IMG/VR virus record: IMGVR_UViG_2731957818_000004
Origin: a virus
Taxonomy: Duplodnaviria > Heunggongvirae > Uroviricota > Caudoviricetes
Direction: 5' to 3' (one strand)
DNA length: 64,000 nt
This document shows positions 7,479 through 57,400 of the stretch, piece by piece. A program made the translations under genes and the position numbers. The notes beneath the pieces are model-generated. The model made no database searches. It was not told the DNA's origin and was given only the letters and a program-made list of their open reading frames with translations. How positions within the stretch are numbered: position 1 is the first letter of the stretch; each line of letters opens with the position of its first letter.

Positions 7479-7492
7479 GGTGATAATCCTTT

Positions 7493-7505
7493 AAACAACT
7501 TGTTT
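7493..7505. promoter_or_regulatory. Class A palindrome (AAACAA-N-TTGTTT core of GAAAACAA-N-TTGTTTTC) in the 5' leader of gene 6996..7478.
   Basis: Between the -10 GATAAT and the RBS. Confidence 0.6.
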
Positions 7506-7682
7506 TCTTGTTGGTTTAATTATCGCTACGCGCATAAGGCGTCCAAGCGTTCTGTTCCGGCAGCTGGTGGCCGGCAGGGAGTCGGAGGGTTGTTCGGTAG
7601 CCTGGCGACAAGAGGTGGGTGTTTTTAGCCTGCGGGAACAGGATGGTCATTTAAGGCCACCAGCATGAGTGGCCTCGTCCTC

Positions 7683-7964
7683 TTAGTGGAGCAAACCGAC
7701 GTCGATGGTATCGCCGGAGCCATCCACGCGGATCATCAGCATGGCGAAGGCATTTAATGGGTAGCCTGCGTGCCAGTCCGGGAAGCGGTCATCGCGCATG
7801 AAGTCGGCAATGTCATAAACGCTGTCTTCAAAGCGGAAGAAGCGGGCATCACATTGTTCGTCCTGTTCAACGTGATCCATTTCCTGCTGCTCTTCCGGCG
7901 ACAGGTCGAGCCAGGATTCCAGCCATACGTTTTCAGCTTTAGGGGAGATAGTGAAATCGGTCAT
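7683..7964 (-). CDS. Small acidic early protein. Start moved to MTDF.
   Basis: GGAGG RBS 8 nt before the ATG at 7964. The ORF-track start lies inside the conserved UTR motif. Confidence 0.55.
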   Translation of the reverse strand: MTDFTISPKAENVWLESWLDLSPEEQQEMDHVEQDEQCDARFFRFEDSVYDIADFMRDDRFPDWHAGYPLNAFAMLMIRVDGSGDTIDVGLLH

Positions 7965-7983
7965 GTGCATATCCTCCATGCGT

Positions 7984-7998
7984 AAACATCTTGTTTTC
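7984..7998. promoter_or_regulatory. Class A palindrome, leader of 7683..7964. The extended -10 TGCGATAAT overlaps a TTATCCACA DnaA-box-like 9-mer.
   Basis: Seen directly. Confidence 0.55.
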
Positions 7999-8090
7999 TT
8001 GTTGGTGTAATTATCGCAATGTGGATAAGGCAAAAAACATTTTGTTATCGGGAATAAGAAAATGGCGCGGGGTACGCGCCATTGGAGGGA

Positions 8091-8486
8091 TTAAGCGAAT
8101 ACGCTTTCCGGGATGTAGGTTTCAACCGGTTCGTTGGACACGATGCGCAGACCGTATTGTCCAAGCCAGGTGTTGCTCGGGTTCAAGTGGGAGGTGTACA
8201 GCTCGTCTGCTTTCGCCATCATCTTCTCAAACATCTCTTTGTTTACGCCGCGGAAATACGTTTCCAGTTTCAGCAGCATTGGTTCGGATGCGTTGCTGAT
8301 GCTCTGGAAGCCTACGGTGTACACCCCATCCTCTTCTGTCCCGGTGCGAATCAGGTTGGTGGTGAGCACTTCAGTCCCGTTCGTGCTGTCACGCAGAATA
8401 GCGGTCAGTTTTGCAACTTTTCCGCCTGAGGTTGTTTCTGACGCATAGTACAAATCAAGAACCAGGTTTTCACGAATTACAGTCAT
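8091..8486 (-). CDS. Hypothetical early protein. Start moved to MTVIREN.
   Basis: GGGAGA RBS before the ATG at 8486. The track GTG start lies in the UTR. Confidence 0.55.
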   Translation of the reverse strand: MTVIRENLVLDLYYASETTSGGKVAKLTAILRDSTNGTEVLTTNLIRTGTEEDGVYTVGFQSISNASEPMLLKLETYFRGVNKEMFEKMMAKADELYTSHLNPSNTWLGQYGLRIVSNEPVETYIPESVFA

Positions 8487-8614: not shown

Positions 8615-8926
8615 TCAGGCTGTCGCCAGGAGAGAGGCACGCTGGATTTCTTGCTGGGCTACTTTGTTCGCTTCCAGTAGCGCCTGTTCCAGCTCTCCTT
8701 CCGGCCAGATGATCTGTTTTGCCATCCACCCTCTTCCACTCTGGCGACGCACACTCATTACGTAACGCGTGCGGGAACCATTGTCGAACGAGACCAGCGT
8801 CTCTTTGAACAGGCGAATGGCAGTGCCGTTGGCGATGATATCGAGCAGGGTCAGCTGGCTCATTACGGTTGGTTTTTCTTTACGTGGCTGGCCCGCGCTC
8901 AGTTTGGTGATCATCGCGTTTTTCAT
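8615..8926 (-). CDS. Hypothetical early protein.
   Basis: Class A motif plus GGAG RBS upstream. A terminator lies downstream at 8561-8581. Confidence 0.55.
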   Translation of the reverse strand: MKNAMITKLSAGQPRKEKPTVMSQLTLLDIIANGTAIRLFKETLVSFDNGSRTRYVMSVRRQSGRGWMAKQIIWPEGELEQALLEANKVAQQEIQRASLLATA

Positions 8927-8938
8927 AATTCACTCCGT

Positions 8939-8954
8939 AAACAACTTGTTTTCT
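8939..8954. promoter_or_regulatory. Class A palindrome, leader of 8615..8926, with extended -10 TGGTATTAT.
   Basis: Seen directly. Confidence 0.6.
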
Positions 8955-9065
8955 TGTTGGTGTAAATAATACCAGCGAGAAAACGGCTACAAAGCATAGC
9001 GTTACGGTGCTGCGCTGCCCGGAGGTTGCAAACAGCAAAAAGCCACCGTGCTGGTGGCCTCACGC

Positions 9066-9294: not shown

Positions 9295-9510
9295 TCACTT
9301 CGTTTCTGACGTTGTGCAGTTCCACGCGACGGACATTGGGTTGTCCTCGATATGGAAATCAAACGTCCCTTCTCTGTATCCTTCAGAGATGAGCGTCGCC
9401 ACGCGACCAGCAACATCCTGAGAGCGGATAACGTCATCGAGGGAGATCTCACACTCGGAGGACGCTTCCTCGCCACAGAGGGTGATGCTGATATTCAGAT
9501 GCTTGTACAT
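9295..9510 (-). CDS. Small acidic early protein.
   Basis: AGGAGG RBS and a class A motif upstream. Confidence 0.55.
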   Translation of the reverse strand: MYKHLNISITLCGEEASSECEISLDDVIRSQDVAGRVATLISEGYREGTFDFHIEDNPMSVAWNCTTSETK

Positions 9511-9527
9511 GTGTTCCTCCTTTGTCT

Positions 9528-9542
9528 AAACACGTTGTTTTC
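9528..9542. promoter_or_regulatory. Class A palindrome, leader of 9295..9510, with extended -10 TGCGATAAT.
   Basis: Seen directly. Confidence 0.6.
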
Positions 9543-9779
9543 TTATTGGTGTTATTATCGCAATAAGACATAGGCGAAAAAGGATTTTATGTCGGGAAAG
9601 CCAGGCTGGGCAGTGAGCATCCGGGAACGACACGAGAGCCAGTATTTACGATATTCTGCTCTACGCGCGCCGCAGGGCTGGTGGGCAGAATTTTCTTCTT
9701 CCCGAAAACCTACTGAAATTGCTTGAGACCCGAGGATGGTCTGGCAGAATGGAGTTCAGCAGCTGCACAAGAGGGAACG

Positions 9780-10229: not shown

Positions 10230-10740
10230 TTCTCTCTACCGGCATATGTGGTTTCGTTCTTCTTGAGGTGGTTCTTCTCTGTGTTTTCGTCTGGGTTGTT
10301 CTCGTCGTTTTGGTGAGTGTTCATCTCCGTGTATGGAGTAATGGCAGGTGCGCTTTTCTCTTCGTTTACGTGAAATGATGGAAGTGTGGGTAATGGCAGT
10401 AGGGCGCTTTAGTTGTTCTCCGCATATGAAGTAAAGGCGTTCCCTGCTATTCAGGAATTTGCGCTCTCTTCCGGGGTAATGGTGGGTAAACGAGATTGTG
10501 ACGGTTCCTGTTCTGGTCTGGGTTTGTCCGGGGTTTCGTTCTGACTGTTCTTCTCCGTATATTGGGTAATGGCGTGTCTGGGTTCGCGTGCGCGAGCTGC
10601 GTTCTCGGTTGCCTGGGAATATTAGGTGGGTGGTCTGTAGCCTGGGGCAATGAGGTGGGTCTTTTCGGTAGCCTGACAGGAAGAGGTGGGTGTTTCCGGG
10701 ATTGTGGGTAATGGCGTCTCTGGGTTTCCTGTGGGTGTGG
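10230..10740. repeat. Direct-repeat array with two unit types: TCTCCGYRTATGRRGTAAWGGC (4 copies) and GGGTAATGGCG (5 copies). The plus strand is G/T-rich and A-poor.
   Basis: Repeat units seen at 10232, 10324, 10408 and 10551; GGTAATGG copies at 10340, 10388, 10473, 10565 and 10703. Confidence 0.6.
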
Positions 10741-10741
10741 T

Positions 10742-10778
10742 TAACTTGTTTTCTTATGCCTGAAAACAACTTGTTTAG
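10742..10778. promoter_or_regulatory. Two adjacent class A palindrome copies with no obvious downstream gene.
   Basis: ttaacttgttttc ... gaaaacaacttgttta. Confidence 0.4.
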
Positions 10779-11152
10779 ACATCCAATATAACGCAACGGG
10801 AGCGCTTCTGAGCGCTTCTGTTTTTGGGTGGTATCACGAGTCGTTTTTGACGTTTTGGTCGCAGGGAGACGTTTTCTGGTGCGTAGGATTTTGGGTATAA
10901 GAGATGGCGTGCGAAAACGTCAACTTTTTAGACCAAATCAGGGGAAAGCGTTGACTTTACGTTGATGTGTTATTTTTTTGTTTTCTTATGGGTGTAATTA
11001 GTTTAAATGCCTTGTCACGCCTAGGCTGGGGTAGGTTGGAAAGGTGGGGAAAGTGGCGATCAACGGACTCTTATAGAAATCTACATTGTTGATGTAGTAA
11101 TTGCTCTGAATATCAATATAGTTGTCATACCCCCTCAACAACTGGAGTTGTT

Positions 11153-11495: not shown

Positions 11496-11816
11496 TTACC
11501 AATCCCATGCAGGCAGCCCATCCACCAGCTCGGCGTCGCAATCAAAGTGAACTGCGTCAAAGCCGGCATCCAGTACCTTCTGAATGTTCTCGATGGTTTG
11601 CCATGTGACGCCGTAATCACGTAGCTCTTCTTTCCAGTCGTTGCCACGCATACCTGCGCGGACAATCCATCCGTACTCCGTGCCGTGTACCCAATTCAGT
11701 CCACGATCTGTTAGTGGGTCGAAACAGATATTAGGCAGACACTCAGAGTCATGCTGTGTAACGTGGGCGGTGCTGATCACCGCCGTCTTATACGATTCGG
11801 TGATTTTCAGCATCAT
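11496..11816 (-). CDS. Hypothetical protein.
   Basis: ATGA overlap with the upstream gene. Confidence 0.45.
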   Translation of the reverse strand: MMLKITESYKTAVISTAHVTQHDSECLPNICFDPLTDRGLNWVHGTEYGWIVRAGMRGNDWKEELRDYGVTWQTIENIQKVLDAGFDAVHFDCDAELVDGLPAWDW

Positions 11817-12046
11817 GCCTTCTCCTTTGGAAACAGAATGTCGGCCGTGTCAGAAATGACATCCCAATTCACGCCGACGCTGGCGTCATGGCACTCTTTG
11901 ATTTTTCGCAAAACCTGAACGCACTGTTCGTCAGTCAGGTCTGGTCGCACTTCACCTACATCTTCCTTGTGCCACATCACCATCAGCAGCGGCTCGTCTT
12001 CTGGGTAGTTCTCCAGCTTTTCGATGATATCTTTTGCGGTTCCGAA
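11813..12046 (-). CDS. Small acidic protein. Start moved to MFGTAKD.
   Basis: AAGGAG RBS 7 nt before the ATG at 12046. The track start is a TTG inside the conserved UTR. Confidence 0.5.
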   Translation of the reverse strand, partial: FGTAKDIIEKLENYPEDEPLLMVMWHKEDVGEVRPDLTDEQCVQVLRKIKECHDASVGVNWDVISDTADILFPKEKA

Positions 12047-12061
12047 CATGATTAGCTCCTT

Positions 12062-12122
12062 AAACAACTTGTTTTCTTGTTGGTGTTATTATCTCAAATA
12101 ACAAAAGGCAGAAAACAAGATG
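12062..12122. promoter_or_regulatory. Class A palindrome pair flanking the -10 of gene 11813..12046, one at about -40 and one at about +10.
   Basis: taaacaacttgttttc at 12062 and gaaaacaagatgttta at 12102. Confidence 0.55.
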
Positions 12123-12134
12123 TTTAAGGGATGA

Positions 12135-12401
12135 TTAGGTGAGTTTGAAGTCGTCTATGTCATCAACAAACTCCATATACCTGGCTTCGACACTAGACAG
12201 ACTGATCAGATACGCAAGCCCGTAACTAAGTGAAGTGGGTTGCTCCAGCACAAATTCGAACCCATCATCATGCGTTTTGCCAAGCCAGAATCCCCCACCG
12301 TATTCTTTTTCACGTTGGAAGAAAACGAACTGTCCTGGTATCAGGTGTTTGAGTGCTTCGCCTCTATAGACGATCTCATATTTGGAATTCTTGCTACCCA
12401 T
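12135..12401 (-). CDS. Hypothetical protein.
   Basis: GAGGGTG RBS. Confidence 0.45.
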   Translation of the reverse strand: MGSKNSKYEIVYRGEALKHLIPGQFVFFQREKEYGGGFWLGKTHDDGFEFVLEQPTSLSYGLAYLISLSSVEARYMEFVDDIDDFKLT

Positions 12402-12486: not shown

Positions 12487-12503
12487 TGAAAACAATTTGT
12501 TTC
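12487..12503. promoter_or_regulatory. Class A palindrome in a plus-strand promoter, for gene 12588..12791.
   Basis: gtgaaaacaatttgtttcgg. Confidence 0.5.
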
Positions 12504-12587
12504 GGAACTTGAGATTTTGCAAACCGCACATACATGAAAAGCGGCAATTTTTGAAACCTGATTTGACCCAAGTGAAAGGAGGAAACG

Positions 12588-12791: not shown

Positions 12792-12804
12792 TTTCACCAC
12801 CTAT

Positions 12805-12840
12805 AAAACAAATTGTTTAAGGCCACAAATAGTGGCCTTA
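12805..12840. terminator. Class A palindrome fused to a GGCCAC...GTGGCC terminator hairpin, between convergent genes.
   Basis: aaaacaaattgtttaaggccacaaatagtggcctta. Confidence 0.6.
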
Positions 12841-12846: not shown

Positions 12847-13551
12847 TTACGGAACAGCGGTAATCAGATCGCAAATGCCTGTTTTAGTTAAATCACTATT
12901 CAGCTTCTGAAAATTGGCATTCAGCATCGCGGTGTGTATTCGAGTCTCAAGCTCAAAGAAAAGGTCGATCTTGCCCTCTTTTGCTGCGTACTTCTTCCAG
13001 ACATTAACTTGGTCATCGGCAATGCGACTGGCGCAGGTGAATAAGAACGAACTCCCTCTGGGAAGGGATGTCGTGCTGTAGTATTCACCGTCAACTTCAA
13101 TATACTTAGCTCGGAATGACTCCAGAGTTAGCTCATCACCGCTCTTAGCCTGCTTTGCGTCTGCCTTGCTTGTCTTTTCCTGAACTTCAGGCTGCTTCTG
13201 CACCGGCTTCGGTGTCTCATTGACCACCGCTGTGCTGGCCGAACCATCCAACCCCTTGAGTCCATTAATTTGGATAAGATAAGCCAGCTCAAGAGCCTTA
13301 TCATCAGTGAGTCTTCCACGCATATTTATCCACTGACGTTGAACCGTCTTTAGGGTGTCTGCATTTTCTGGGTTAGCCTTGAGCGCGCTGGAATAGGTTG
13401 CGCTAAGTTGTTCGTCTAATTTTGACAGGCGTTCGTTGTCACAGATTTTGTGTTCGATTTCTGTCGAAGCCTTTTGGCAGTCAAAGCTGGCTGCAAAAGC
13501 AGCCGGCGATGCTACCAACAATGATGCCAGTAGGATATTTTTCATATTCAC
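12847..13551 (-). CDS. Secreted DUF1311 / LprI-like (lysozyme-inhibitor-fold) protein.
   Basis: Signal peptide. The CD..K..T..E..IC......L...Y...QWINMRG pattern is typical of DUF1311. Confidence 0.5.
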   Translation of the reverse strand: MNMKNILLASLLVASPAAFAASFDCQKASTEIEHKICDNERLSKLDEQLSATYSSALKANPENADTLKTVQRQWINMRGRLTDDKALELAYLIQINGLKGLDGSASTAVVNETPKPVQKQPEVQEKTSKADAKQAKSGDELTLESFRAKYIEVDGEYYSTTSLPRGSSFLFTCASRIADDQVNVWKKYAAKEGKIDLFFELETRIHTAMLNANFQKLNSDLTKTGICDLITAVP

Positions 13552-13583: not shown

Positions 13584-14135
13584 TTAACCGACTGCTTCTC
13601 TCGCTTGATCGTCAAGCGCTTTCAGCCCATCACGTACCGCGTTCACGATACGTTCCAGGTATTGGTATCTGGGGTTTGGCACCGTTGGCCAACCGGCATA
13701 CCACGGATCGTCACCAAACAGACTCAGCAGTTCGTTGCCGACACCGAAACAGCAGCAACTTTCTTTTACGTCATCAGCGTTTTCTGCCTCGTCCCACATA
13801 TTGCGGGCCTGTTCTGCGTCGATTTCTTTCTCCCTGCGCAACTTTATGATTTGGGACTTTACGAAAAGCAGGTTTGCGTCGTTGTCATCGTCGACCGTAC
13901 TCAGCAATTGAGGGTCGAGGCAACCAATCAAATAATCGTTGCTCACTCTCTTAATAAACGTCTGCACGTCATCACCGCCCATCGCGAACCAGGCAGCAGT
14001 CCATGCTTTCCCATAGCAGGTGATGGTGACTCTTCCCTTGCCCGGCTCGTAGTTTTCAATCATTACGCGTACCGGGTCGAGACGCTCCAGATCCGTCAGC
14101 ACAAAGGAAAGAACATCTATTTTTTCGACCTTCAT
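13584..14135 (-). CDS. Hypothetical protein translationally coupled to the alarmone hydrolase. Start moved to MKVEK.
   Basis: ATGA overlap with the stop of 14132..14773. Confidence 0.45.
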   Translation of the reverse strand: MKVEKIDVLSFVLTDLERLDPVRVMIENYEPGKGRVTITCYGKAWTAAWFAMGGDDVQTFIKRVSNDYLIGCLDPQLLSTVDDDNDANLLFVKSQIIKLRREKEIDAEQARNMWDEAENADDVKESCCCFGVGNELLSLFGDDPWYAGWPTVPNPRYQYLERIVNAVRDGLKALDDQAREAVG

Positions 14136-14773
14136 GCAGCCTCCCACGCGCCCCAGATCAGCGCTTTGTGTTTTTCATAACGTTTGGTGTGTACCGGTTG
14201 CAGACTGGCAATGCCTTTCGTCACCATCGCCCGGGCGTTTATCAGCAACGAATGCTCTATGCCTTTTTTCTCCAGGTACTCGACAACACCGGCATCGGCA
14301 CCAATCTCCTTGCCGTCAAAGAGTACGGCCAGCATCAGCTCTTTCTCTGCGAGGTAGATGGCTGAGAACTCAGGGTCGCGACTCACGATAGAAGAGGTAT
14401 TGTCCAGCAGGTCAGCCAGCTTGATCATGCGCGTCTGCATGTCGAGGCTTTGCTCCAGCTCCCGGACGTTGATGATGAAGCGCTGTATTCGATTGCCGTC
14501 TTCTGGTCTGGCAATGTTGGTCAGAGCCAGAACCATTTCGGCTACGTGCTCACCGAAGTGCCCACGAACCATCTCTATGGTGACATGGGTGTCTTCGACC
14601 ACATCATGCAGCAGCGCCGCGATCTGCATCTCCACGGTTCCACCATGCCAGGCAACAATCTCGCGGACTGCAACCGGGTGGTTGATGTAGTCTTCACCGG
14701 TATATTTTCTTTTCTGGCCAACGCCGCCATGAGCGCCAGCGGCAAACATATGGGCTTTGGAAATACGGGACAT
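14132..14773 (-). CDS. RelA/SpoT-family HD-domain (p)ppGpp / alarmone hydrolase (small alarmone hydrolase-like).
   Basis: Motifs HxxGQxRKYTGEDYINHPVAV, AALLHDVVEDT, FG..VAEMV, IKLADLLDN match the SpoT/Mesh1 HD domain. Start moved to MSRISK with a GGAG RBS; the track ORF extends through a terminator hairpin. Confidence 0.7.
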   Translation of the reverse strand: MSRISKAHMFAAGAHGGVGQKRKYTGEDYINHPVAVREIVAWHGGTVEMQIAALLHDVVEDTHVTIEMVRGHFGEHVAEMVLALTNIARPEDGNRIQRFIINVRELEQSLDMQTRMIKLADLLDNTSSIVSRDPEFSAIYLAEKELMLAVLFDGKEIGADAGVVEYLEKKGIEHSLLINARAMVTKGIASLQPVHTKRYEKHKALIWGAWEAA

Positions 14774-14826
14774 TCTTAACTCCGTTGTTTTCTGGATGTG
14801 GTTATTTTCACAGATAAGAAAAGGTA

Positions 14827-14861
14827 GAAAACAAATTGTTAAAGGCCACAATAGTGGCCTT
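14827..14861. terminator. Class A palindrome plus the same GGCCAC...GTGGCC hairpin, between 14865..15236 and the alarmone hydrolase gene.
   Basis: gaaaacaaattgttaaaggccacaatagtggcctt. Confidence 0.6.
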
Positions 14862-16246: not shown

Positions 16247-16266
16247 TAGGTAAGTATTTACCTATC
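16247..16266. promoter_or_regulatory. Class B palindrome TAGGTAAGTATTTACCTATC.
   Basis: Perfect 7-bp arms. Upstream of 15517..16206. Confidence 0.55.
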
Positions 16267-17950: not shown

Positions 17951-17962
17951 GATTGCACCATT

Positions 17963-17977
17963 AAACAAATTGTTTTC
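17963..17977. promoter_or_regulatory. Class A palindrome, leader of the large methyltransferase gene.
   Basis: aaacaaattgttttc. Confidence 0.55.
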
Positions 17978-18091
17978 TTGTTGGTGTTATTTTCCCAAAG
18001 TTGAAAAGGCGTAAAAGCAGCATTCACAGGCGTTTCAGCTGATTTAAGGCGTAAAAAAGGGGGCTTTCGCCCCCTGTCGGCAGGTGAGATA

Positions 18092-18664: not shown

Positions 18665-18684
18665 GTGTTTTTTCCTTATGTTTT

Positions 18685-18700
18685 TAAACAAGTTGTTTTC
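18685..18700. promoter_or_regulatory. Class A palindrome, leader of 18092..18664.
   Basis: aaacaagttgttttc. Confidence 0.55.
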
Positions 18701-18772
18701 TCGATGGCGTTATTGTGGCGTGACTGAAAAGGTGGGCAAACGCTACGTAAAGGCGGACGCCAACACTGACGG

Positions 18773-19633: not shown

Positions 19634-19698
19634 AAAAAGGGCCGTCAGTGGCCCTTGTTGTTAACTCTCATTGGTTAATTGGCTAAACAATTTGTTTT
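19634..19698 (-). promoter_or_regulatory. rha leader: class A palindrome (19685-19698) followed by a terminator-like hairpin GGGCC-ACTGAC-GGCCC plus T-run (19634-19656), then the RBS.
   Basis: Seen directly. Candidate attenuator. Confidence 0.5.
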
Positions 19699-19723
19699 AA
19701 CAGTGCCGAAAATGGATTCGGCA

Positions 19724-29914: not shown

Positions 29915-29946
29915 GTGTTTCCCTCTGAATGTTATCGAGTGGCTTT

Positions 29947-42377: not shown

Positions 42378-42391
42378 ACCAATTTGTTTTC
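42378..42391. promoter_or_regulatory. Class A-like motif upstream of 41922..42293.
   Basis: aaccaatttgttttcttgttggtgataat. Confidence 0.45.
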
Positions 42392-42455
42392 TTGTTGGTG
42401 ATAATGCGGAAATAAAAAAGGCGTCCAAGTGGACGCCGTATCTTTGAAAAGGCTG

Positions 42456-48648: not shown

Positions 48649-49092
48649 TTATGCGACTTTCTTACCAAAAATGTTGGATAGTGTGACTCTGGTCTGGCGT
48701 TTCAACCTGTACTGTCTCACATCACCAATCTTGTTCACTTCCATAAACTCTTTGGCCACCTTCAGCACCAGCCGATTGCGGAACACTTTGAACGCCTCCA
48801 GCTGTTCCTCTGGGTTATCCGATTCGTAAATCTCCAGCAGATACTGGCACGCCTTCGGATCTTGCGTTTTAAGCGCCAGCGCTCTGGCACATTTACGCAG
48901 ACGACTGACTTTATCGGCACCATCCAGCCCGGCGAACGCCAGCGCCAGATCTAACGTGACCGGGCAGTCGATGATTTCCCAGAACTGCGACCGCATGGTG
49001 GCCGCAACAGCTTTATCCTGAAAATCCGCTGGGATAGCCGCCAGCGCTTGTGCAATCTTCTGTGCCTCGTTCATGGTGTTCTCTTTATTCAT
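48649..49092 (-). CDS. Hypothetical protein.
   Basis: 147-aa ORF with an ATGA overlap with the dnaE C-part. Confidence 0.45.
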   Translation of the reverse strand: MNKENTMNEAQKIAQALAAIPADFQDKAVAATMRSQFWEIIDCPVTLDLALAFAGLDGADKVSRLRKCARALALKTQDPKACQYLLEIYESDNPEEQLEAFKVFRNRLVLKVAKEFMEVNKIGDVRQYRLKRQTRVTLSNIFGKKVA

Positions 49093-50258
49093 TTGCTAAT
49101 AGTCTCCGCTACCTCTGCCAGAATTGCTTCCAGCTTTTCGCCTTCTTCTGGGCGAAAGTACAAAATGTTTGGGTTAAATCCGTAGAAAACGGTCACATCC
49201 AGCTCCGGCAGATACTCTTTGCGTCCAACCAGGTCGGATGGTTTGTTCTTGTTGTTGAAGAGTGACGTCGCCCGACTGCCACACGTCAGCACATAGGTCG
49301 GACGCACCAGATTGATCTCTTCACGCATAAAGTCGGTGAACTGGCCGATCTCGTCTTTGGTGTAGTCCTTCTCTTTGTCCTTCACCTTTTTGCACACGCC
49401 GGTGACGTAGAGATCGCCCATGCGCAGATCGCCTGCAGTAAGCAACTTCGCTTTAAAGTCGTCGTAGCCGTTCTCCATGAAGTAACCGGTACGCCCATCA
49501 TTGCCGTTCGCGTTGTCCAGAATGACCATGATTTTCGGCTTAATGCCAATGCTTGGGCGGATCAGGTCGTCTCCCAGACCCATTTCAGCCGCCATGCGAG
49601 TCATCAGTACATTCACTTCAGCAGAGCGCTTAGGGTTCATCTCGAACGGTCGAGAGGCTTTTACAGCGTCGATCACCAGATTGCCCATCAACTCTGCCTG
49701 GTCGCGCAGTCGTTCCGGATCTGTCGCTGGCAGACTGCCAGGCTCAATCGATGCGAACGCACCTACTTTTTGCAGTGACTCGCGTACCCGGCTGTTACAC
49801 GCACGCTTCTCGACCGCTTCCTCAAATTGCTCAAGTGACTCGAATTTGCCGCCAACTTTCTCACGCGCTCTCATGATGGCCTGGCAACCATTCTCAGAGC
49901 AGCCTTTTACAGCAGAGAATGGCGCATACAGAACCTGGCTGCCGTCTTCCAGCGTGCGGATCTCAATGCGATTAGACGATATGTTCACATCTGGTGGCAG
50001 TACGCGAATGCCATAGGTCAGCGCATCCTTCACAAGCCCCTGATGTTTGTCCTCGCCCAGAATGGTGAGCGCAGCAGCAAAAAACTCAGCCGGGTAGTGC
50101 GTTTTTAGCCACATGGACTGATAGCTGATTAAAGAATAAGCAACAGAGTGCGATTTGTTGAAGGCATACGCGCCGGATTTCTCAAACATATTCCAGATTT
50201 CTTCGGCTCGTTCGTGCGTCAGGCCATTGCTCTCTTCAACAACACCGATAATTTTCAT
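49089..50258 (-). CDS. dnaE: DNA polymerase III alpha (DnaE)-like, C-terminal fragment.
   Basis: AFNKSHSVAYSLISYQSMWLKTHYPAEFFAA, the DnaE fingers motif GFNKSHSAAYAL..YQT.WLKAHYPAEF. The ATG overlaps the HNH ORF stop as ATGA. Confidence 0.8.
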   Translation of the reverse strand: MKIIGVVEESNGLTHERAEEIWNMFEKSGAYAFNKSHSVAYSLISYQSMWLKTHYPAEFFAAALTILGEDKHQGLVKDALTYGIRVLPPDVNISSNRIEIRTLEDGSQVLYAPFSAVKGCSENGCQAIMRAREKVGGKFESLEQFEEAVEKRACNSRVRESLQKVGAFASIEPGSLPATDPERLRDQAELMGNLVIDAVKASRPFEMNPKRSAEVNVLMTRMAAEMGLGDDLIRPSIGIKPKIMVILDNANGNDGRTGYFMENGYDDFKAKLLTAGDLRMGDLYVTGVCKKVKDKEKDYTKDEIGQFTDFMREEINLVRPTYVLTCGSRATSLFNNKNKPSDLVGRKEYLPELDVTVFYGFNPNILYFRPEEGEKLEAILAEVAETISK

Positions 50259-50989
50259 GCAGTCACCTCATCAATCTTCATGAACTTATACCCATTGGAC
50301 ACCAGCCAGTCCCGTTGGCGCACCCAGCTCCATACCTCTTCATGCATTTCGCTATGCAGACGAATGTGAGCGTCTTCTGGAAGTGCCACCAGATTCCCAG
50401 GGACGTTATCTAGCGTGTCGCGGTTAATGTGGTGGACATGTTCATCGTCACGTAGCTCCCGACCGAGATGTTCTTTCGCTATCAACCGATGAACGTATTC
50501 GTATTGCGAAACGCCATTGTTACCAACCAGCTGCATCATGTAGCCGTTGGTTTTTATGATGACGCCACCTTTGTAGTTGTTCGCTTCTTCTCCGGTCTTT
50601 CCGCGTTTGGCAGCAGCCAGCTTTTCCTTCGTCTCCAGGCGGATTGTTCTGCCGGTCAGCTTTTTCGAAACGGTGGCCACTCGCTCATCGGTATCGGCAC
50701 GCAGCCCTGCATTCCACGAGGTTTTCCCATACATAGGGTTGCCAGCGCCAGTCCGGGCTTCGGAGAGTCGCTTTATGCGTTCGTCATTATTTTTGTTTTT
50801 GCCACGATTCCAGGCTGGGGTAGCGGAGATCCGCGCGTTTCCGCGCCTGATCCCCCATTTGGCTAATAAGCGATCAATGTTTGCCTTGCTGCAACCAGCT
50901 TCGGCGGCAATGTCTTCTTTTCTCATCAGGTCAACCATGTAACGCTGACGTAACCATTCTTCTGTGATTTTGTACTTCGTACCCGGCAT
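50255..50989 (-). CDS. HNH homing endonuclease inserted within dnaE.
   Basis: C-terminal EHVHHINRD...N HNH motif and N-terminal NUMOD-like helix-turn-helix repeats. Its own class A promoter lies at 51004-51040. Confidence 0.7.
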   Translation of the reverse strand: MPGTKYKITEEWLRQRYMVDLMRKEDIAAEAGCSKANIDRLLAKWGIRRGNARISATPAWNRGKNKNNDERIKRLSEARTGAGNPMYGKTSWNAGLRADTDERVATVSKKLTGRTIRLETKEKLAAAKRGKTGEEANNYKGGVIIKTNGYMMQLVGNNGVSQYEYVHRLIAKEHLGRELRDDEHVHHINRDTLDNVPGNLVALPEDAHIRLHSEMHEEVWSWVRQRDWLVSNGYKFMKIDEVTA

Positions 50990-51003
50990 TTCTAAGACTC
51001 ACT

Positions 51004-51040
51004 AAACAAATTGTTTTCTTATCCTATAAATTAATTATCA
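51004..51040 (-). promoter_or_regulatory. Class A promoter for the HNH endonuclease. Its -10 GATAAT overlaps the stop codon of the dnaE N-fragment.
   Basis: gataattaatttataggataagaaaacaatttgttt on the minus strand. Confidence 0.55.
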
Positions 51041-53401
51041 AATATCGAAGCTCGTTATGTCGGCATTTATTGCCATTGCTTCGGCATAAGTGCGACGCTC
51101 ACCATCAGCGCAAAGCAAACGTGCCGTTTTATGAATTTTCCGCGTAGAACCATCATCAAGTGACACTGTCACCCAGCCTTTCTCCGCTCGCTTAATGAAG
51201 TCGCCACCAATGGATTTCATTTTTTCCATATCTTTTTTCCCGATCGCTTTCCTGACCGAGTCTGCTTCCGCCATTGAGAACCCCGCCAGGATTCGCGTAG
51301 CAGCCATGATTTGCTCCTGATAAATCAGTACGCCGTTTGTATCGCGAGATATATCGTCTAGCATTGGGTGCAAGGAATGTGGTGGCATGAAGCCTTTGGC
51401 CACAGAAACGTAGTCATCCAACATGCCTGACTGGATGGGGCCGGGGCGGAAGAGCGCGGTGGTCGCGACAACCGTTTTAAAGCTCATTGGCTCGATACCG
51501 CTACCCAGATCTCTAAGCAGCTTGCGCATTGGGCCAGATTCCAGCTGGAAGACGCCCTGTGTGTAGCCAGCTGCGAAACCATCCAGAACTTTGCGGTCGT
51601 CGAGTGGAATGGCGTCGAGGTTGATATCGTTGCCAGTGCTCTCTTTGATGTAACGCTTTGCGCTATCCAGCAGATCGAGCGTGGCCAGACCGAGAACGTC
51701 CAGCTTAATCAGCCCCATCGCCTCGCAGTAACGTTTATCGAACGCAATACAGCGAGCATTGCCACGCAGCTCGACGGGCGTGCGCTCTACCAGTGGAACG
51801 CCAGCGACGATCATCCCCGCAGCGTGGCGACCAAAACCACGCATCAGGCTTTGCAGCTTACACGCCGCTTTGAACGCTTCCGGGTATTTCGTGGCGTATT
51901 TGTCCAGGCTGGCCAGTTGCTCGCGCAGCTCTTCCAGCGACAGGCTATCGTCCTCCAGATTCTTGAACTCTTTGGATACCGCCATATCCGCAGCGTCGAC
52001 ACCGTAAATACGCGCAGTGTCACGCAGCGCCGAAGCAGCGCCCAGATAGGTGAAGTTCGGAATACCGGCAACGTAATCTTCGCCATAGCGTTCATTCAGA
52101 TACTCGATCACCTCATGACGACGTGCCTGGCTGAAGTCCAGATCCGCATCCGGCAAGTCGAGACGTTCAGGGTTAATGAAACGCTCAAACAGAAGACCGT
52201 GACGGATAGGATCAACGTTGGTTATGCCTATGCACCACGCCACCAGAGACCCGGCAGAGGAACCACGACCTGGCCCGACAGGAATGCCAGTTTCACGGCT
52301 GTGATTCATCAGGTCGCGCACCATCAGGAAGTAGCCACAGAAGCCCAAGCGGGTCAGCGTGTCCATTTCGTACTTCAGGCGATCAACATACACACGGTGC
52401 TCAGAAGCCGGTGGTGTGTAGCCAAATTCTTTGGTAGTAAGACGCTTGCGTAGCCCCGCGACAGCCAGCTTCATCAGCGTTGCAGGCTCGTCGTCTGCCA
52501 TCTTGGGCAGTGCTGGTGGCAATTCATGCCAGCGCCATGTGCAGGCTTCAATAATGGTGTCCTGCGTTGTTGAGGCCATTGCAGCTGTTACCGGCACATC
52601 CATTCGAACGGAGAAGGCTTTCAGCGCTTCAAGGAGATGGCGGCGACCATTAACGGCGTTATCTCGCTGGTGGGGAATACGCAGACGATGCGGCTGGTCG
52701 ATTTTGATGTTGTTCGTAACCATGTGCGCAATGTCTTTAATGTCAGCGTCGTCGACCGCTTCGTAATAAGCGGGATAGAACGCCACTGGCTCTATTTTCA
52801 GTGCGCTCGCCACTTTCATCGCCCGGACGTTAATCTGGTCGTAGAATGGGGTAGGGTGCGGATAAACCACGCTGTAGAAGTTATCGCGTCCTCCAGCTGT
52901 CACCAGCGTCCCGATAATCTTTGCGAAGTCCCGGCGCTGGAATACACTGCCAATGTCGGACGTCAGCAGGATGATGTTGCCTTTGGCATATGCGGCCGCC
53001 AGCTGGTCAAGTGCCAGACGCGGGACAAAGTAGAATTGCTCGCGCTTGTTCGCTAAGGTCATCAGTTCGCACACGTCGCGATAACCTTGCTCATTCTTTA
53101 TCAGTGCCGTGAAGCAGTAGCTGCGATCACGCACCAATGATTCCATACATCCCCCTGACTCTTTCGCCAGGCGGGCGCGGTGCTCGTATGTCGGATCGTC
53201 GACCACATTCAGCTTAACACCACAAATAACCGCCATGTCGTCGCCAGCGGCACGCTGCAGGGGGATCACACTGGCAATGTTCATGCTGTCAGCGGAAATG
53301 ACAGCGGTGTAGCCAGCGTCTCTCGCGATTCTCACCGCGTTTTCTGCTTTTAGAGCCGACTCTCCCAGGGAGAAGTCAGTTCTGACCATCAGAGCCTTCA
53401 T
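51038..53401 (-). CDS. dnaE: DNA polymerase III alpha (DnaE)-like, N-terminal fragment (PHP-like, palm, thumb).
   Basis: LLFERFINPERLDLPDADLDFSQARRHEVIEYL matches the DnaE palm catalytic region FERFLNPERVSMPDFDVDF...R..VI.Y. About 44 non-homologous residues precede the stop. Confidence 0.8.
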   Translation of the reverse strand: MKALMVRTDFSLGESALKAENAVRIARDAGYTAVISADSMNIASVIPLQRAAGDDMAVICGVKLNVVDDPTYEHRARLAKESGGCMESLVRDRSYCFTALIKNEQGYRDVCELMTLANKREQFYFVPRLALDQLAAAYAKGNIILLTSDIGSVFQRRDFAKIIGTLVTAGGRDNFYSVVYPHPTPFYDQINVRAMKVASALKIEPVAFYPAYYEAVDDADIKDIAHMVTNNIKIDQPHRLRIPHQRDNAVNGRRHLLEALKAFSVRMDVPVTAAMASTTQDTIIEACTWRWHELPPALPKMADDEPATLMKLAVAGLRKRLTTKEFGYTPPASEHRVYVDRLKYEMDTLTRLGFCGYFLMVRDLMNHSRETGIPVGPGRGSSAGSLVAWCIGITNVDPIRHGLLFERFINPERLDLPDADLDFSQARRHEVIEYLNERYGEDYVAGIPNFTYLGAASALRDTARIYGVDAADMAVSKEFKNLEDDSLSLEELREQLASLDKYATKYPEAFKAACKLQSLMRGFGRHAAGMIVAGVPLVERTPVELRGNARCIAFDKRYCEAMGLIKLDVLGLATLDLLDSAKRYIKESTGNDINLDAIPLDDRKVLDGFAAGYTQGVFQLESGPMRKLLRDLGSGIEPMSFKTVVATTALFRPGPIQSGMLDDYVSVAKGFMPPHSLHPMLDDISRDTNGVLIYQEQIMAATRILAGFSMAEADSVRKAIGKKDMEKMKSIGGDFIKRAEKGWVTVSLDDGSTRKIHKTARLLCADGERRTYAEAMAINADITSFDI

Positions 53402-53579: not shown

Positions 53580-53581
53580 GA

Positions 53582-54817: not shown

Positions 54818-54876
54818 GTGTTTTCCTTACTGTTTGTCGTTCGTGGGGTATATCTTATATAAATATATTAGGCTGT

Positions 54877-54895
54877 ATAGTAAGTGATTACTTAT
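54877..54895. promoter_or_regulatory. Class B-like ATAGTAAGTGATTACTTAT.
   Basis: Upstream of the CobS-like gene. Confidence 0.45.
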
Positions 54896-54912
54896 TTTTA
54901 CGGGTAAAGCAA

Positions 54913-57291
54913 TTACCCAAGAATGATACGAGATAGCTCTGTGACGACTGACGGCCCTAACTCTTCTACGCTGTTTACCAGTGCGTAATTTTTGTAGTAA
55001 CGCCGTGGTGCGTCGGTCAGAACGCCGATAGCCATCAAATCGATGTCACTCAACGTCTCAATTTCCTTGGTGACGGTTCGCAAATGCTGATGGAACCCAT
55101 CGCCTGCAGCACATGGCGCCCCGTCGCTCATAACCAGCATGATCTTCTTGTCCTCCATTCGCCCTGCAAACAGAGTCGCCAGCTGCGCGACGCTCTCACC
55201 ATCGACGTTATTGAGCAGGGGGAACGTCTCACACACGCAGCCCATGCGGGCGCGGATCTCTGGAGAGTTAGCTTTCTCATTCCAGTTTTTGATAATGGGC
55301 AGCATTAGCGCCTCGAAGCGAGTAAACCCGCGCTTCGACATGGTTTCATAATCTGGACTACCAAACGTGGTAAAGCCGGTGATGATGTTAGGCACATTGA
55401 TACGATCCAGAGCATCCGCAATGGTGTAGGCGCTTGCGAGTGCCAACTGAATCTTCCTGCCGCCCATTGAGCCGGACAAGTCGATCACTTGCTGGACGCA
55501 CGCGTTCACCGCTCTGTGGTCTTCTTTTTTGCGGAACACGCGGTCGTCGTTCATTGCCAGACGATACAGGTTCGCGCCATGTATCCGCCCACGTCTCTGG
55601 CCTGGGATAAACTGAACTCGGTTGCGGCTGGCGATAGCTCGCTCCAGGTCTTTGGCCAGAGTCGAAGAAACGCCTGCTGACAGATGTTTTTCGATTTTCA
55701 GTTCAAAGAGCTTTCTGCCTTCCGGAACCATGCGGTAGCGATCGACCGGTGAGTGCATCGGGATTGCGCCGAACGTCTTTCTGGTGCGCTTTACATGCTC
55801 TTCAGCCTCATCAATCAACCCGATAAAGTCGTATGAACGATCGTATGGGCGATACTCAGAAAGTGAGGTGCTCATAAGCTCTTTGCTGATGGTGGCCGAC
55901 AGTGCGTCTTCGGTCATTTCGCCTGTTCCGTCTTCCATCTCGTCGAGCGCCTTGAGTGCGTCCTCCAGAGTCATTTCATCCGGAGCAGGAACAAAGCCTG
56001 ATTCACTGTCTTCAGGCGCTTCCGCGGCATCCTCATTTTCTTTACCTTCGCCGTCTGTGTGATCGGCGGCGTCATCTTCCTCTTCGCCTTCTCCTTCGGA
56101 CTCCCCATGACCGGCATCGGAGTCTTCGCCGTCATCACTATCACCATCACCATCACCATCGCCAGCGGCGCCAGAGCCATAACCATCGGAGTCATCGGCG
56201 TCATCGCGAATGCCATCACCAGGCGTTGGAGAGCCAGTGTCATCACTACCACCTTCGTCATCAGAATCACCTGATTCCATGCCGGCATCATCGGATTCTG
56301 GGGTGTCTCCTGATTCCTCTTCGCCTGCTTCTGTATATTTACTTTCTGTATCACTAATTTCTTTATCTTCTGTAGGTAAGTCCTTATATACTGATTCAGG
56401 CAAATCAGAATCCCCAGACTCTTCCTCTTCTGAGGCATCATCTTCTTGCTCTTCCTTGTCGTCGTCTTCGCCTTTGGTACGCTTTGGTGCTGATTCACTA
56501 TGAGTCGGTTCATCACCGGCTTCTGGGGTTTCCTCTGACTCGTCCTCACTCTTCGACGGCTTCCTAGCAGACGATTTCAGCTCTGGTAATTTGCCCTCTG
56601 GCTTGTCTTTCATATCCTGCATGATTTGGGCGATAGCAGCTGCGACCTTCACACAGTCTTCTGTGTTCGACATATTGCGAACGGCCACGTCGATACCATG
56701 CTCTTTGAGCAAGGCCACAGGCTTCTCGATGAGGTGCCAGTGTTCTTCCATAAAGTCGATGAAAGGGCTTTGGCCATCCCAGGCGCGAACGACCGGGCAA
56801 AGGAAGAATTTCAGGAACAATTCACGCTGGTTGCCGTGGCAGATTGAAACCGCCTCTGACACTTTGCCCTTGAAGTATTTGTCGATCACCAGGTTCTGTG
56901 TGGCCAGTAAATTGCGACGGGTTCCGTTGAATACCTGTCCCATTCTGCGTTCAATAAAAACGTCTTCCAGCGCGTTCCAAAGCCCGGTAGACGGAGCCTT
57001 TCCTTTCTCGCGCATCTTCATTGCGACTTTCGGATCAGTAAAGAGGATATGGGCTACCTCATGGTCGAGAAAACCACGTACTGCGTTCATGAGGGTTGGT
57101 GACGCGTCGTCCGGTATAGATGGGATGTTTACCAGCACTGGTTCGCCGCGCCGGTTGTAGCGGACATATGCTTCATTGCCTCGCTCTGCAACAGGTATCT
57201 GTTTGCCTGATAGCATCGCTACAACTCGTTTCACGCAGTCGCGGAAGTCCTGTACCTCTTTCAGCACAGCTCTGGTCATGGCTTTGGACAT
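54913..57291 (-). CDS. CobT-like protein with a long D/E-rich linker and a C-terminal von Willebrand A domain. Start moved to MSKAMT.
   Basis: MIDAS motif VIDLSGSMGG. An acidic low-complexity tract of about 250 aa. AAGGAAA RBS before the ATG at 57291. The track N-terminus translates the class A UTR. Confidence 0.65.
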   Translation of the reverse strand: MSKAMTRAVLKEVQDFRDCVKRVVAMLSGKQIPVAERGNEAYVRYNRRGEPVLVNIPSIPDDASPTLMNAVRGFLDHEVAHILFTDPKVAMKMREKGKAPSTGLWNALEDVFIERRMGQVFNGTRRNLLATQNLVIDKYFKGKVSEAVSICHGNQRELFLKFFLCPVVRAWDGQSPFIDFMEEHWHLIEKPVALLKEHGIDVAVRNMSNTEDCVKVAAAIAQIMQDMKDKPEGKLPELKSSARKPSKSEDESEETPEAGDEPTHSESAPKRTKGEDDDKEEQEDDASEEEESGDSDLPESVYKDLPTEDKEISDTESKYTEAGEEESGDTPESDDAGMESGDSDDEGGSDDTGSPTPGDGIRDDADDSDGYGSGAAGDGDGDGDSDDGEDSDAGHGESEGEGEEEDDAADHTDGEGKENEDAAEAPEDSESGFVPAPDEMTLEDALKALDEMEDGTGEMTEDALSATISKELMSTSLSEYRPYDRSYDFIGLIDEAEEHVKRTRKTFGAIPMHSPVDRYRMVPEGRKLFELKIEKHLSAGVSSTLAKDLERAIASRNRVQFIPGQRRGRIHGANLYRLAMNDDRVFRKKEDHRAVNACVQQVIDLSGSMGGRKIQLALASAYTIADALDRINVPNIITGFTTFGSPDYETMSKRGFTRFEALMLPIIKNWNEKANSPEIRARMGCVCETFPLLNNVDGESVAQLATLFAGRMEDKKIMLVMSDGAPCAAGDGFHQHLRTVTKEIETLSDIDLMAIGVLTDAPRRYYKNYALVNSVEELGPSVVTELSRIILG

Positions 57292-57309
57292 GAGAATTTC
57301 CTTGTTATT

Positions 57310-57325
57310 AAAACAATTTGTTTTC
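57310..57325. promoter_or_regulatory. Class A palindrome with perfect 8-bp arms, in the leader of the CobT/VWA gene.
   Basis: aaaacaatttgttttc. Confidence 0.6.
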
Positions 57326-57400
57326 TGATGTGCGTAATTTATCACTGTACGAACAGGCGACTAAGCTGTTCGTACAGGCTTCTATCGGCAGGAATGTGTG

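Follow-up and report, generated by a model that had tools for sequence, protein, structure and literature searches.

Candidate DNA operators in a repeated early promoter-leader cassette of an SSU5-type phage-plasmid

The plasmid prophage P1 offers a close described parallel to the system considered here: its C1 repressor acts at operators dispersed over the genome, each of them an asymmetric 17-mer (ATTGCTCTAATAAATTT) that is read by a monomer. Lytic and accessory operons over some 100 kb share this one operator, which occurs a dozen or more times per genome and in part as inverted pairs, and a similar pattern is found in a 64,000-nucleotide stretch of viral DNA (IMG/VR record IMGVR_UViG_2731957818_000004, Caudoviricetes), hereafter the window. 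The window matches Salmonella phage SSU5, reversed in orientation, at 94-96% identity and 110-kb Citrobacter and Enterobacter plasmids at about 97%, and is therefore part of an SSU5/pHCM2-type phage-plasmid. Its minus strand holds nearly all genes from 6.7 kb to 64 kb, convergent with a short plus-strand operon (2082-6355), and about a dozen of the minus-strand genes are preceded by a promoter-leader cassette that contains the palindrome AAACAA-N-TTGTTT. Whereas the P1 site is an asymmetric 17-mer, here a 13-bp palindrome appears at fixed positions, about +14 and -38, inside a conserved promoter and leader block; no homologue of C1 was seen. We give roughly even chances to the view that these cassettes are host σ70 early promoters carrying DNA operators of an element-encoded repressor that is active in the plasmid-prophage state. 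By analogy with P1, they would then belong to a known kind, the dispersed operators of a plasmid-prophage repressor.

The repetition of the block is real and far beyond chance. Within the window, the 17-mer GAAAACAANTTGTTTTC has 11 matches with at most two mismatches and a 14-mer has 16 with at most one, against 0.03 expected in either case, and the 13-mer core AAACAA-N-TTGTTT occurs 17 times with at most one mismatch. A position-weight scan, used to set full cassettes apart from other copies of the palindrome, yields 11 full cassettes, all on the minus strand, which align without gaps over about 68 nt (Table 1). They consist of a T-rich stretch with GCCTTTT, followed 16 bp on by (TGn)GATAAT, and then by nACACCAACAAG, AAAACAAnTTGTTTA and the Shine-Dalgarno (SD) sequence with its ATG, the last two lying in most cassettes 19-39 nt past the centre of the palindrome. 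The leader after the -10 element GATAAT reads ACACCAACAAG, and the palindrome lies against the SD. In a twelfth promoter (14777-14843) the -10 is present and the leader site is reduced to its left half. The original prediction, which had recognised the block correctly, counted at least 17 transcription units. This is too many: some of the palindromes (centres 12119, 8041 and 14835) belong as second sites to promoters already counted; others are fused to a terminator (12812) or solitary (10770, 12496 and 19691), and about 12 cassette promoters are left. The symmetry had likewise been put at 17 bp and is limited to the 13-bp core: the outer flanks are asymmetric (AGA-AAACAAnTTGTTT-AAGG), their self-pairing is nearly nil, and the full site reads approximately AGAAAACAAnTTGTTTAAGG.

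A scan with the -35/-10 consensus selects no cassette, and since no recognisable -35 is found in any of them the promoters are considered to be devoid of a usable one. The TG of an extended -10, predicted for the block as a whole, stands one base 5' of GATAAT, GAAAAT, TATTAT or TAAATT in 6-7 of the 11 cassettes and is missing from the rest. In sequence, the arrangement agrees with the σ70 extended -10 type, defined by TGn plus a TATAAT-like hexamer and a dispensable -35. If the -10 is set at -12 to -7, the palindromes would be centred at about +14 in the leader and about -38 upstream. The upstream copies (centres 12119, 14835 and, in degenerate form, 8041) cover the -35 region in inverted orientation (CCTT-AAACAAnTTGTTT-TCT); those at 12119 and 8041 are exactly 51 bp from the leader copy, and that at 14835 is at the matching distance from its -10. 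Two arrangements reported before, a copy 5' of a -10 element (12119) and fusions with terminator hairpins (12812 and 14835), are present as described. Strong terminator hairpins also sit 5' of several cassettes, which indicates that the small early genes are each a transcription unit of their own.

The genes served are mostly small open reading frames (ORFs) without a Pfam family, and others encode a DUF4942 methyltransferase-like protein, an HD-domain hydrolase, a NinX-like protein, NrdB, a CobT/VWA protein and an HNH/NUMOD3 endonuclease. The methyltransferase-like gene (17969), nrdB (29953), the CobT/VWA gene (57317) and the endonuclease gene (51010) had already been named correctly, and the claim that many annotated ORF starts lie inside the leader also holds, at TTG or GTG (e.g. 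16265..17968, 18092..18691, 11813..12067 and 54913..57345). Pfam and PHROG scans of the cassette-driven small proteins and of the candidate regulators returned almost solely 'unknown function'. No known RNA family was found at the cassettes by Rfam 15, whose scan of the whole window at the gathering threshold gave a tRNA (62595-62666) as its sole match.

Copies of the site were pooled from the window, SSU5, the related element Cyrano, three diverged plasmids and SSU5-like IMG/VR contigs. The pool comprises 63 unique leader-type and 48 unique -35-type copies, in which conservation reaches 90-100% at both half sites and the central base varies freely, and the canonical promoter derived from it is CCTTAAACAAnTTGTTTTCTGCCTTTTCTTATTTGnGATAATAACACCAACAAGAAAACAAnTTGTTTAAGG. 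Among 84 close pairs (both strands counted), 52 have a spacing of 51 bp, with minor classes of 25, 37 and 20 bp. Across 21-24 distinct two-site promoters, the 31-bp interval differs considerably in sequence yet is constant in length, without indels; the 51-bp spacing itself therefore appears selected, which ties the upstream copy to the promoter and not to an upstream transcript. A fixed position relative to the -10 and +1, together with half sites conserved apart from their flanks, is the behaviour of an operator-type site. The complete genomes of SSU5 and Cyrano contain 20 and 18 copies, respectively, including, beyond the region that the window represents, one before parA, one before a dnaB-type helicase gene and two in tandem in the leader of the terminase/late operon. 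Sites outside leaders thus comprise the -38 copies, the tandem copies that precede the terminase gene of SSU5 and Cyrano, at a distance of 25 bp from each other, and arrays of the half site TTGTTTTCT. Downstream of the palindromes, the late leader has a GC-rich hairpin that ends in a T-rich tail (GAGCGCAAGGATGCGCTC TGAGTGTTTT) and looks like a promoter-proximal terminator, for which antitermination would be needed.

The palindrome is identical, and occurs 10-14 times per 40 kb, in the plasmids pCAV1015-111 of K. oxytoca, pL3995-2 of K. pneumoniae and pCP102 of Enterobacter, whose backbone proteins are merely 50-85% identical to those of the window, and the conservation of motif and spacing extends to related plasmids from Salmonella, E. 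coli, Klebsiella, Enterobacter and Yersinia. The more distant Pectobacterium plasmid Drgb1 (38% GC) has lost the palindrome (1 match in 108 kb) and retains a half motif, AAACAAATTAAGG, located 5-8 nt 5' of the ATG in at least six genes and always in sense orientation. A scan of IMG/VR with the 17-mer returned SSU5-like contigs and chance matches in low-GC phages, and no second phage family with the cassette.

The original prediction allowed for either a dimeric DNA-binding protein or an RNA-level operator, the latter as a hairpin with a 6-bp stem beside the ribosome-binding site. Ten leaders fold with -1.5 to -7.3 kcal/mol, no better than shuffled sequences (z from -1.35 to +1.4), and their minimum-energy folds do not regularly include the palindrome hairpin. 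Moreover, the natural variants A6 to T, A6 to C, A3 to C and G10 to A break the pairing without compensation, and the covariation score of the self-hairpin (0.029) is below the shuffle mean (0.043). On these three grounds the leader hairpin is rejected. The case for recognition at the DNA level rests on the strictly kept palindromic core with its free centre, on the apparently selected spacing of the -35 copy and on the tandem and half-site arrays outside leaders. Of the earlier proposal, the operator for a dimeric DNA-binding protein and the early regulon agree best with the anatomy, with the inverted copy at 51 bp, with the conservation across relatives and with the silence of the genes in a lysogen, described below, while the version that relied on an RNA hairpin is abandoned.

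A second RNA structure might form across two sites. Since upstream and leader copies are reverse complements of each other, flanks included, read-through RNA would fold into a 20-bp stem that could bury the SD or make an RNase III site, in which case only transcripts from the cassette's own promoter would be translated. We consider this highly improbable. The minus-strand RNA of 12040-12135 is very stable (-30.2 kcal/mol, z = -5.97, 0 of 200 shuffles as stable) and its Cyrano equivalent gives z = -2.57, whereas the degenerate pair at 7958-8057 has no significant folding (z = -1.11). Over 21 distinct two-site promoters 81.7% of the inter-site helix cells pair, with double changes at the flank columns 7/74 and the centre columns 15/66, and the inter-site covariation is 0.093 against 0.073 in shuffles (18 of 500 reach the score), a signal without counterpart in the self-hairpins. 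However, the two copies of any palindrome pair trivially, the extra covariation is weak and comes from sequences related to each other, and solitary and tandem copies would be left unexplained. In the window, just 3 of about 12 promoters have an upstream copy at all, one of them degenerate, and since most cassettes have no complete one the long-range hairpin is not their general function.

Expression in a lysogen bears on whether the promoters are repressed. In RNA sequencing of the Cyrano lysogen (PMC9928086, supplement), CYRAN_47 (7.8), nrdB (12.9) and CYRAN_101 (7.5) are close to the median of 9.8 and CYRAN_105 to _110 mostly have values of 6-17, while the maintenance genes are expressed. 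The cassette-driven genes are thus at background, and for host-type promoters to be silent in the lysogen a repressor is needed. In the mechanism proposed, a promoter without a -35 and mostly with a TGn-extended -10 would be followed by an A/C-rich, unstructured leader with an operator centred near +14, joined in the canonical form by a second, inverted operator near -38, exactly 51 bp upstream and close to five helical turns away. These operators would be occupied by a protein that the element encodes and produces as a plasmid prophage and that binds DNA sequence-specifically; it would block both binding and escape of the RNA polymerase, so that the dozen or so early units of the window and the site-bearing units elsewhere would be kept silent until induction.

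The same cassettes could in principle do without any dedicated trans-acting factor, as an optimised promoter and translation-enhancing leader that has spread among early genes by duplication and recombination, that marks module boundaries and in which the palindrome is incidental. In keeping with such mobility, the leaders are A/C-rich and unstructured, the small early genes are each a terminator-promoter-gene unit, the mobile HNH endonuclease gene has a cassette copy of its own and Drgb1 is left with the SD-proximal half only. The ends of homology blocks shared with relatives also fall within 45 bp of a palindrome in 22% of endpoint clusters, against 8.9% at random, an enrichment that is confounded by gene boundaries. 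This explanation is nevertheless decidedly unlikely, given that half sites and 51-bp spacing are invariant where the surrounding intergenic DNA has dropped to 70-80% identity or less, that copies at -38 and beside terminators have no role in a translation enhancer, and that something must repress genes that are silent in the lysogen despite their host-type promoters. A described example of mobile cassettes is provided by the PeSL (promoter-early / stem-loop) elements of T4-type phages, reportedly the subject of work by Arbiol, Comeau and Krisch in 2010. They, too, are near-identical short cassettes beside small early genes, with a host-type early promoter and a terminator hairpin; PeSLs lie in the plastic part of the genome and coincide with module boundaries, a trait to which the confounded enrichment just given would correspond here. 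PeSLs have no reported leader palindrome or -35 copy, whereas here the conservation extends to +25 and the cassettes are kept in non-plastic regions as well (nrdB, cobT, dnaB and parA).

Given a DNA operator, the leading candidate for the binder, named tentatively and with clearly less than even confidence, is the 96-119-amino-acid partner of a type Ib ParA (SSU5_034 / CYRAN_29), which is encoded outside the window. Its gene directly follows that of the short Walker-type ParA, and in three clades a site of the leader type lies in the operon (SSU5 30449, Cyrano 29259 and L129 19197). Identity of the protein is 95% or more in 735 of 797 plasmids, and its variants of 50-69% identity retain the invariant blocks PQGRPTRGK, in an Arg-rich tail, KSRTMS.EDE and RSDVIRAAI, which makes it the best conserved among the putative DNA binders of the family. 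The Cyrano lysogen expresses it, with a value of 89 (PMC9928086, supplement). The ranking of candidate binders rests on their conservation and expression and on the logic of autoregulation. This pattern would fit a partition protein that controls its own operon and also acts as a global repressor, by analogy with omega of plasmid pSM19035 and KorB of RK2. Both of these are partition proteins that are also global repressors, omega reading arrays of 7-bp heptads and KorB a 13-bp palindrome. In each case the centromere-binding partner of a ParA ATPase recognises short sites repeated over several promoters of the replicon, its own included, and maintenance is thereby coupled to silencing; here, the ParA operon carries the palindrome and encodes a conserved small second protein that is a putative DNA binder. 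The known sites form heptad arrays upstream or lie at variable distances, in contrast to the single or paired palindromes at +14/-38 of about 20 phage promoters. The structure model of the ParA partner (disorder at 1-40, helices at 48-59 and 70-82 plus two more) is a weak monomer model, with a predicted template modelling score (pTM) of 0.44, and a ribbon-helix-helix fold could not be confirmed.

Several observations weigh against a repressor acting on DNA, or against this candidate for it. The binder named above is a candidate, and the start positions, taken from the -10, the repressor nature of the factor and its action on DNA are all inferred. Relative to the gene, the orientation of the leader copy never varies, and the copy is part of the SD region, neither of which a pure DNA operator needs, and most cassettes of the window have no complete upstream copy. 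The half motif of Drgb1, SD-adjacent and exclusively in sense orientation, looks more like an RNA or translation signal. As to the ParA partner, it has no Pfam family, its model has no Foldseek match, and its profile alignment by hhalign with ParG, omega and CopG sequences was null. Drgb1 has a homologue whose strand (KSRTVSM) is similar, yet the plasmid is devoid of the palindrome, and Y. pestis pMT1 has no ParA-partner gene and still has five palindromes. The use of pMT1 as a natural knockout of the ParA partner is uninformative, since it is a recent defective derivative in which the early region is deleted. Covariation between motif and regulator does not discriminate for AAACAA-N-TTGTTT either: in the three diverged plasmids the motif is identical with FljA-like proteins of 33-54% identity, and in Drgb1 all candidate regulators have diverged together with the loss of the palindrome. 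We know of no E. coli transcription factor whose consensus site matches the motif.

Some of these points, among them the orientation of the leader copy, are those expected of an RNA-level translational operator, a reading kept alive by a protein that the earlier annotation had overlooked. The product of 4289..4816 matches the Flag1_repress family (PF03614) over its full length (1-170 of 170, E 4.6e-96, 319.9 bits with a cut-off of 24) and is 34% identical to annotated fljA. FljA proteins are known as post-transcriptional repressors of fliC that act on its mRNA (PMC2652032; bioRxiv Senftenberg paper). According to a model built from a 28-sequence alignment, the protein has two tandem modules of a helix and five strands (predicted local distance difference test score 82, pTM 0.80), and nearly all of its top 50 PDB matches in Foldseek are Hfq proteins of many species (probability 1.00, target-normalised template modelling scores of 0.68-0.84); the sole PDB matches at the sequence level are to an Hfq-like protein of M. 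jannaschii (E 0.6). It is therefore predicted to be a tandem Hfq/Sm-fold protein. Possible but rather unlikely, in our judgement, is that this protein binds the A- and U-rich leader (AACAAGAAAACAAnUUGUUUAAGG) beside the SD in all cassette mRNAs, blocks ribosome binding and promotes decay of the transcript. Flanked by a helicase gene and the early region, its gene belongs to the conserved backbone and is core to 831 SSU5-type plasmids, among them those of Klebsiella pneumoniae and Yersinia pestis. To our knowledge these two species make no flagella, so that its target is probably inside the element.

Within the leader, AACAAGAAA constitutes an (A-R-N)3 tract, the kind bound by Hfq, and a U-rich tract adjoins the SD; the leader copy is always sense relative to the SD, and distant Drgb1 retains its half motif at the equal position. 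Just 5' of the SD, the cassette has CAAGTTGT in common with the Salmonella fliC leader (AACATCAAGTTGTAATTGATAAGGA; primers, PMC3410353, PMC5056187), and the fljB-type leader does not contain this core. The common 8-mer is a single, coincidence-level observation, however, and the E. coli K-12 fliC leader is a weak match. In the Cyrano lysogen the FljA-family gene has a value of 18 against a background of 9.8, and higher values in other conditions (PMC9928086, supplement), but the cassette transcripts are absent and not just untranslated. A binder of single-stranded RNA accounts neither for the strict palindrome nor for the -38 copies at a fixed 51 bp and the tandem copies outside leaders, and the FljA-family protein is down to 33-36% identity in plasmids with an unchanged motif. 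No flagellin gene is found near 4289..4816, so that the linkage to flagellin and the repression of fliC that define a functional FljA do not apply here. Alongside the DNA operators, which we continue to prefer, RNA-level control may also be present.

Among known systems, FljA on fliC and RegA of phage T4 resemble this RNA-level control in that a small phage- or island-encoded protein binds a 5' leader by the SD; RegA represses the translation of many early mRNAs. Here a full-length FljA-family protein is encoded and the core shared with the fliC leader is present, although the known systems have neither a DNA palindrome nor sites upstream of the promoter. An extension of this idea, quite unlikely in our estimate, is that the FljA-family protein is a global post-transcriptional silencer of early genes with a RegA-like regulon, binding RNA and possibly A-tract DNA, and that Salmonella FljA is a domesticated copy retargeted to the fliC leader via the CAAGUUGU core. 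No paper linking FljA to the Sm/Hfq fold was found in a literature search whose scope did not extend to the original FljA papers. As a tandem Hfq/Sm-fold protein, FljA would have an explanation for its action on mRNA and, possibly, an origin in phage-plasmids. Drgb1, besides a 28%-identical FljA-like protein, encodes its own 73-amino-acid Hfq beside dnaB (23234-23455).

The remaining regulator to be considered is the XRE-type repressor (57877..58263), presumed to be the master repressor of lysogeny and proposed earlier as a binder of AAACAA-N-TTGTTT. This 128-amino-acid protein is encoded by a core gene of about 820 plasmids and well expressed in the Cyrano lysogen (96; PMC9928086, supplement), and a 17-bp site with an odd centre is typical for helix-turn-helix dimers. 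It is very unlikely to be the binder. Its divergent control region has no palindrome of this family in the window, Cyrano, a Klebsiella clade or Drgb1, and contains TAAGTA-type inverted repeats in all four instead, e.g. GGTAAGTGCTTAC(C). The TAAGTA-type motif is present at about 10 other promoters of the window (10 matches against 0.4 expected), and in Drgb1 its half site has changed from AAGTA to AGGTA together with the recognition helix of the XRE protein, from NANNLSLIKSGK to SHNNVSMLKSGK; for this pair, therefore, the comparison with Drgb1 is informative. The XRE protein is accordingly assigned to a second regulon, and the TAAGTA-type family is probably its set of operators, as judged from the sequences. 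The sites of this second dispersed palindrome family read ATAAGTAnnnnACTTACTTATCAT on the minus strand, overlap a TATCAT-like -10 and front mostly promoters of replication and nucleotide metabolism, plus a divergent ParB-like/helicase promoter.

Similar doubts apply to the other regulators that had been proposed. The Rha protein is missing from Cyrano and pCP102, which keep the motif, and the 92-amino-acid ribbon-helix-helix-like protein of 3644..3922 is just 32-57% conserved, its N-terminal strand-like segment included; the latter is strongly expressed in the Cyrano lysogen, at 114 (PMC9928086, supplement). The AAACAA-N-TTGTTT sites share with the operators of lambdoid phages (lambda, 434 and P22) a pseudo-symmetric form, an odd centre that would be uncontacted and the overlap with promoters, and cooperative binding to pairs of sites would be another feature in common. 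Lambdoid operators are clustered at one or two control regions by the repressor gene, whereas the sites described here are dispersed, absent from the control region of the XRE gene itself and marked by conservation that reaches as far as the central base.

The XRE repressor, a small divergent ORF and an integrase are carried by the window, Cyrano and about 820 plasmids, and all three are missing from phage SSU5. SSU5, which is employed as a lytic biocontrol phage, may thus be a natural deletion mutant of this XRE/integrase module that is unable to maintain lysogeny, as the wiring proposed here would predict.

Literature searches found no published description or printing of the AAACAA-N-TTGTTT motif, no work on repressors or operators of SSU5-type elements and no account of how these elements decide between plasmid life and lysis. 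What appears new, therefore, is the sequence itself, the fixed inverted-pair architecture at -38/+14 within a promoter-leader block, the candidate regulators and the division into two separate operator regulons, with AAACAA-N-TTGTTT in front of parA and dnaB as well as at early promoters and in the late leader, and TAAGTA-type sites at promoters of replication and nucleotide metabolism. The shortlist of regulators comprises the ParA partner, the XRE repressor and the FljA-family protein. Among the SSU5-type phage-plasmids are pHCM2 from S. Typhi, pMT1 from Y. pestis, pLF82/Cyrano and hundreds of plasmids of Klebsiella, E. coli and Enterobacter; they are frequent in clinical isolates and able to carry resistance genes.

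Table 1. Cassettes, other palindrome copies and candidate regulators in the window, with related loci elsewhere (O1, leader site; O2, upstream site)
Feature	Coordinates	Strand	Details
Full cassette	7487..7554	-	-10 GATAAT 7518-7523, leader AAACCAACAAG, O1 7491-7507 (centre 7499), SD, ATG of ORF 6996..7478
Full cassette	7978..8049	-	TGcGATAAT, O1 7982-7998 (centre 7990), drives ORF 7683..7970
Degenerate O2 of cassette 7978..8049	8033-8049 (centre 8041)	-	51 bp upstream of O1
Terminator just upstream of cassette 7978..8049	8083-8061	-	
Full cassette	8933..9000	-	TGgTATTAT, O1 8937-8953 (centre 8945), drives ORF 8615..8926; terminator 9061-9039 upstream
Full cassette	9522..9589	-	TGcGATAAT, O1 9526-9542 (centre 9534, variant AAACAACGTGTTT), drives ORF 9295..9510
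Canonical two-site cassette	12056..12131	-	O2 12111-12127 (centre 12119, inverted, ~-38), TGaGATAAT, O1 12060-12076 (centre 12068, ~+14)
ORF driven by cassette 12056..12131	11813..12052	-	
Half cassette	14777..14843	-	O2 14827-14843 fused to terminator hairpin 14863-14840, then TGtGAAAAT
Left-half O1 of 14777..14843	14785-14793	-	AGAAAACAA, GGAG directly after; drives HD-domain gene 14132..14773
Full cassette	17957..18024	-	TGgGAAAAT, O1 17961-17977 (centre 17969), drives DUF4942 methyltransferase-like gene 16265..17950
Full cassette, weaker -10 (CACAAT)	18680..18747	-	O1 18684-18700 (centre 18692), drives ORF 18092..18664
Cassette-like leader of nrdB (28772..29914)	29941..30008	-	O1 29945-29961 (centre 29953, AAGATAACAATTTGTTTAAAG); no good -10 at standard distance; terminator-like hairpin GGGGAGAGATCCCC upstream
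Full cassette, -10 CATTAT	42371..42438	-	Directly 3' of terminator GGCGTCCACTTGGACGCCTTTTTT; O1 42375-42391 (centre 42383, variant TTGGTT)
NinX-like gene driven by cassette 42371..42438	41922..42311	-	
Cassette-like leader of HNH/NUMOD3 endonuclease gene 50255..50989	50998..51065	-	O1 51002-51018 (centre 51010)
Cassette of CobT/VWA gene (54913..57291)	57305..57372	-	TGaTAAATT, O1 57309-57325 (centre 57317)
Solitary palindrome, O2-like orientation	10762..10778	-	Half site AAGAAAACAAG (~10745-10755) ~21 bp downstream; edge of iteron-like repeat region
Half cassette (AACTAATTACACCCATAAGAAAACAAAAAAATAA)	10970..11005	-	Left half site alone; no ORF after
Solitary palindrome, O2-like orientation	12488..12504	-	~95 nt upstream of ORF 12135..12401; decayed promoter context
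Terminator-fused palindrome	12804..12820	-	3' side of hairpin AAGGCCAC..GTGGCCTT of gene 12847..13551
Solitary palindrome	19683..19699	-	76 nt upstream of Rha-family gene 18773..19615
FljA-family protein (PF03614)	4289..4816	+	Two tandem Hfq/Sm-like domains predicted; candidate factor for RNA-level control
XRE-type repressor (homologue of CYRAN_45)	57877..58263	+	TAAGTA-type palindrome in control region
TAAGTA-type centres	2028, 16255, 20555, 22809, 27659, 27809, 37090, 43532, 54887, 62233, 63410; XRE-proximal 57829-57843		
XRE/integrase module	57401-59361 (window); 41776-42761 (SSU5)		Missing in SSU5
Terminase/late leader tandem sites	SSU5 40-134; Cyrano 40-135; pMT1 5240-5320		Palindromes 25 bp apart

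Three further loci were observed in the course of the analysis. The DNA polymerase III alpha gene of the window is in two parts on the minus strand, 51038..53401 (PHP, NTPase and finger regions) and 49089..50258 (HHH), interrupted by the free-standing HNH/NUMOD3 endonuclease gene with its own cassette-like leader, and the SSU5 gene is single and uninterrupted. At 10270-11005, a non-coding stretch contains iteron-like direct repeats, namely a 30-nt unit present three times at 10602-10692 and many copies of TGGGTAATGGCG. It is flanked by half cassettes (10735-10765 and 10967-10997) from which transcription would run into the region, and may be an origin or a non-coding RNA locus; the ORF listed at 10236..10796 is probably spurious. 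Finally, CYRAN_43 of Cyrano (40268-40822, minus strand), annotated as 'hypothetical protein', has a value of 7084 against 9.8 in the lysogen data, about 700-fold over background and far above every other gene of the element, and this locus may be a non-coding RNA.

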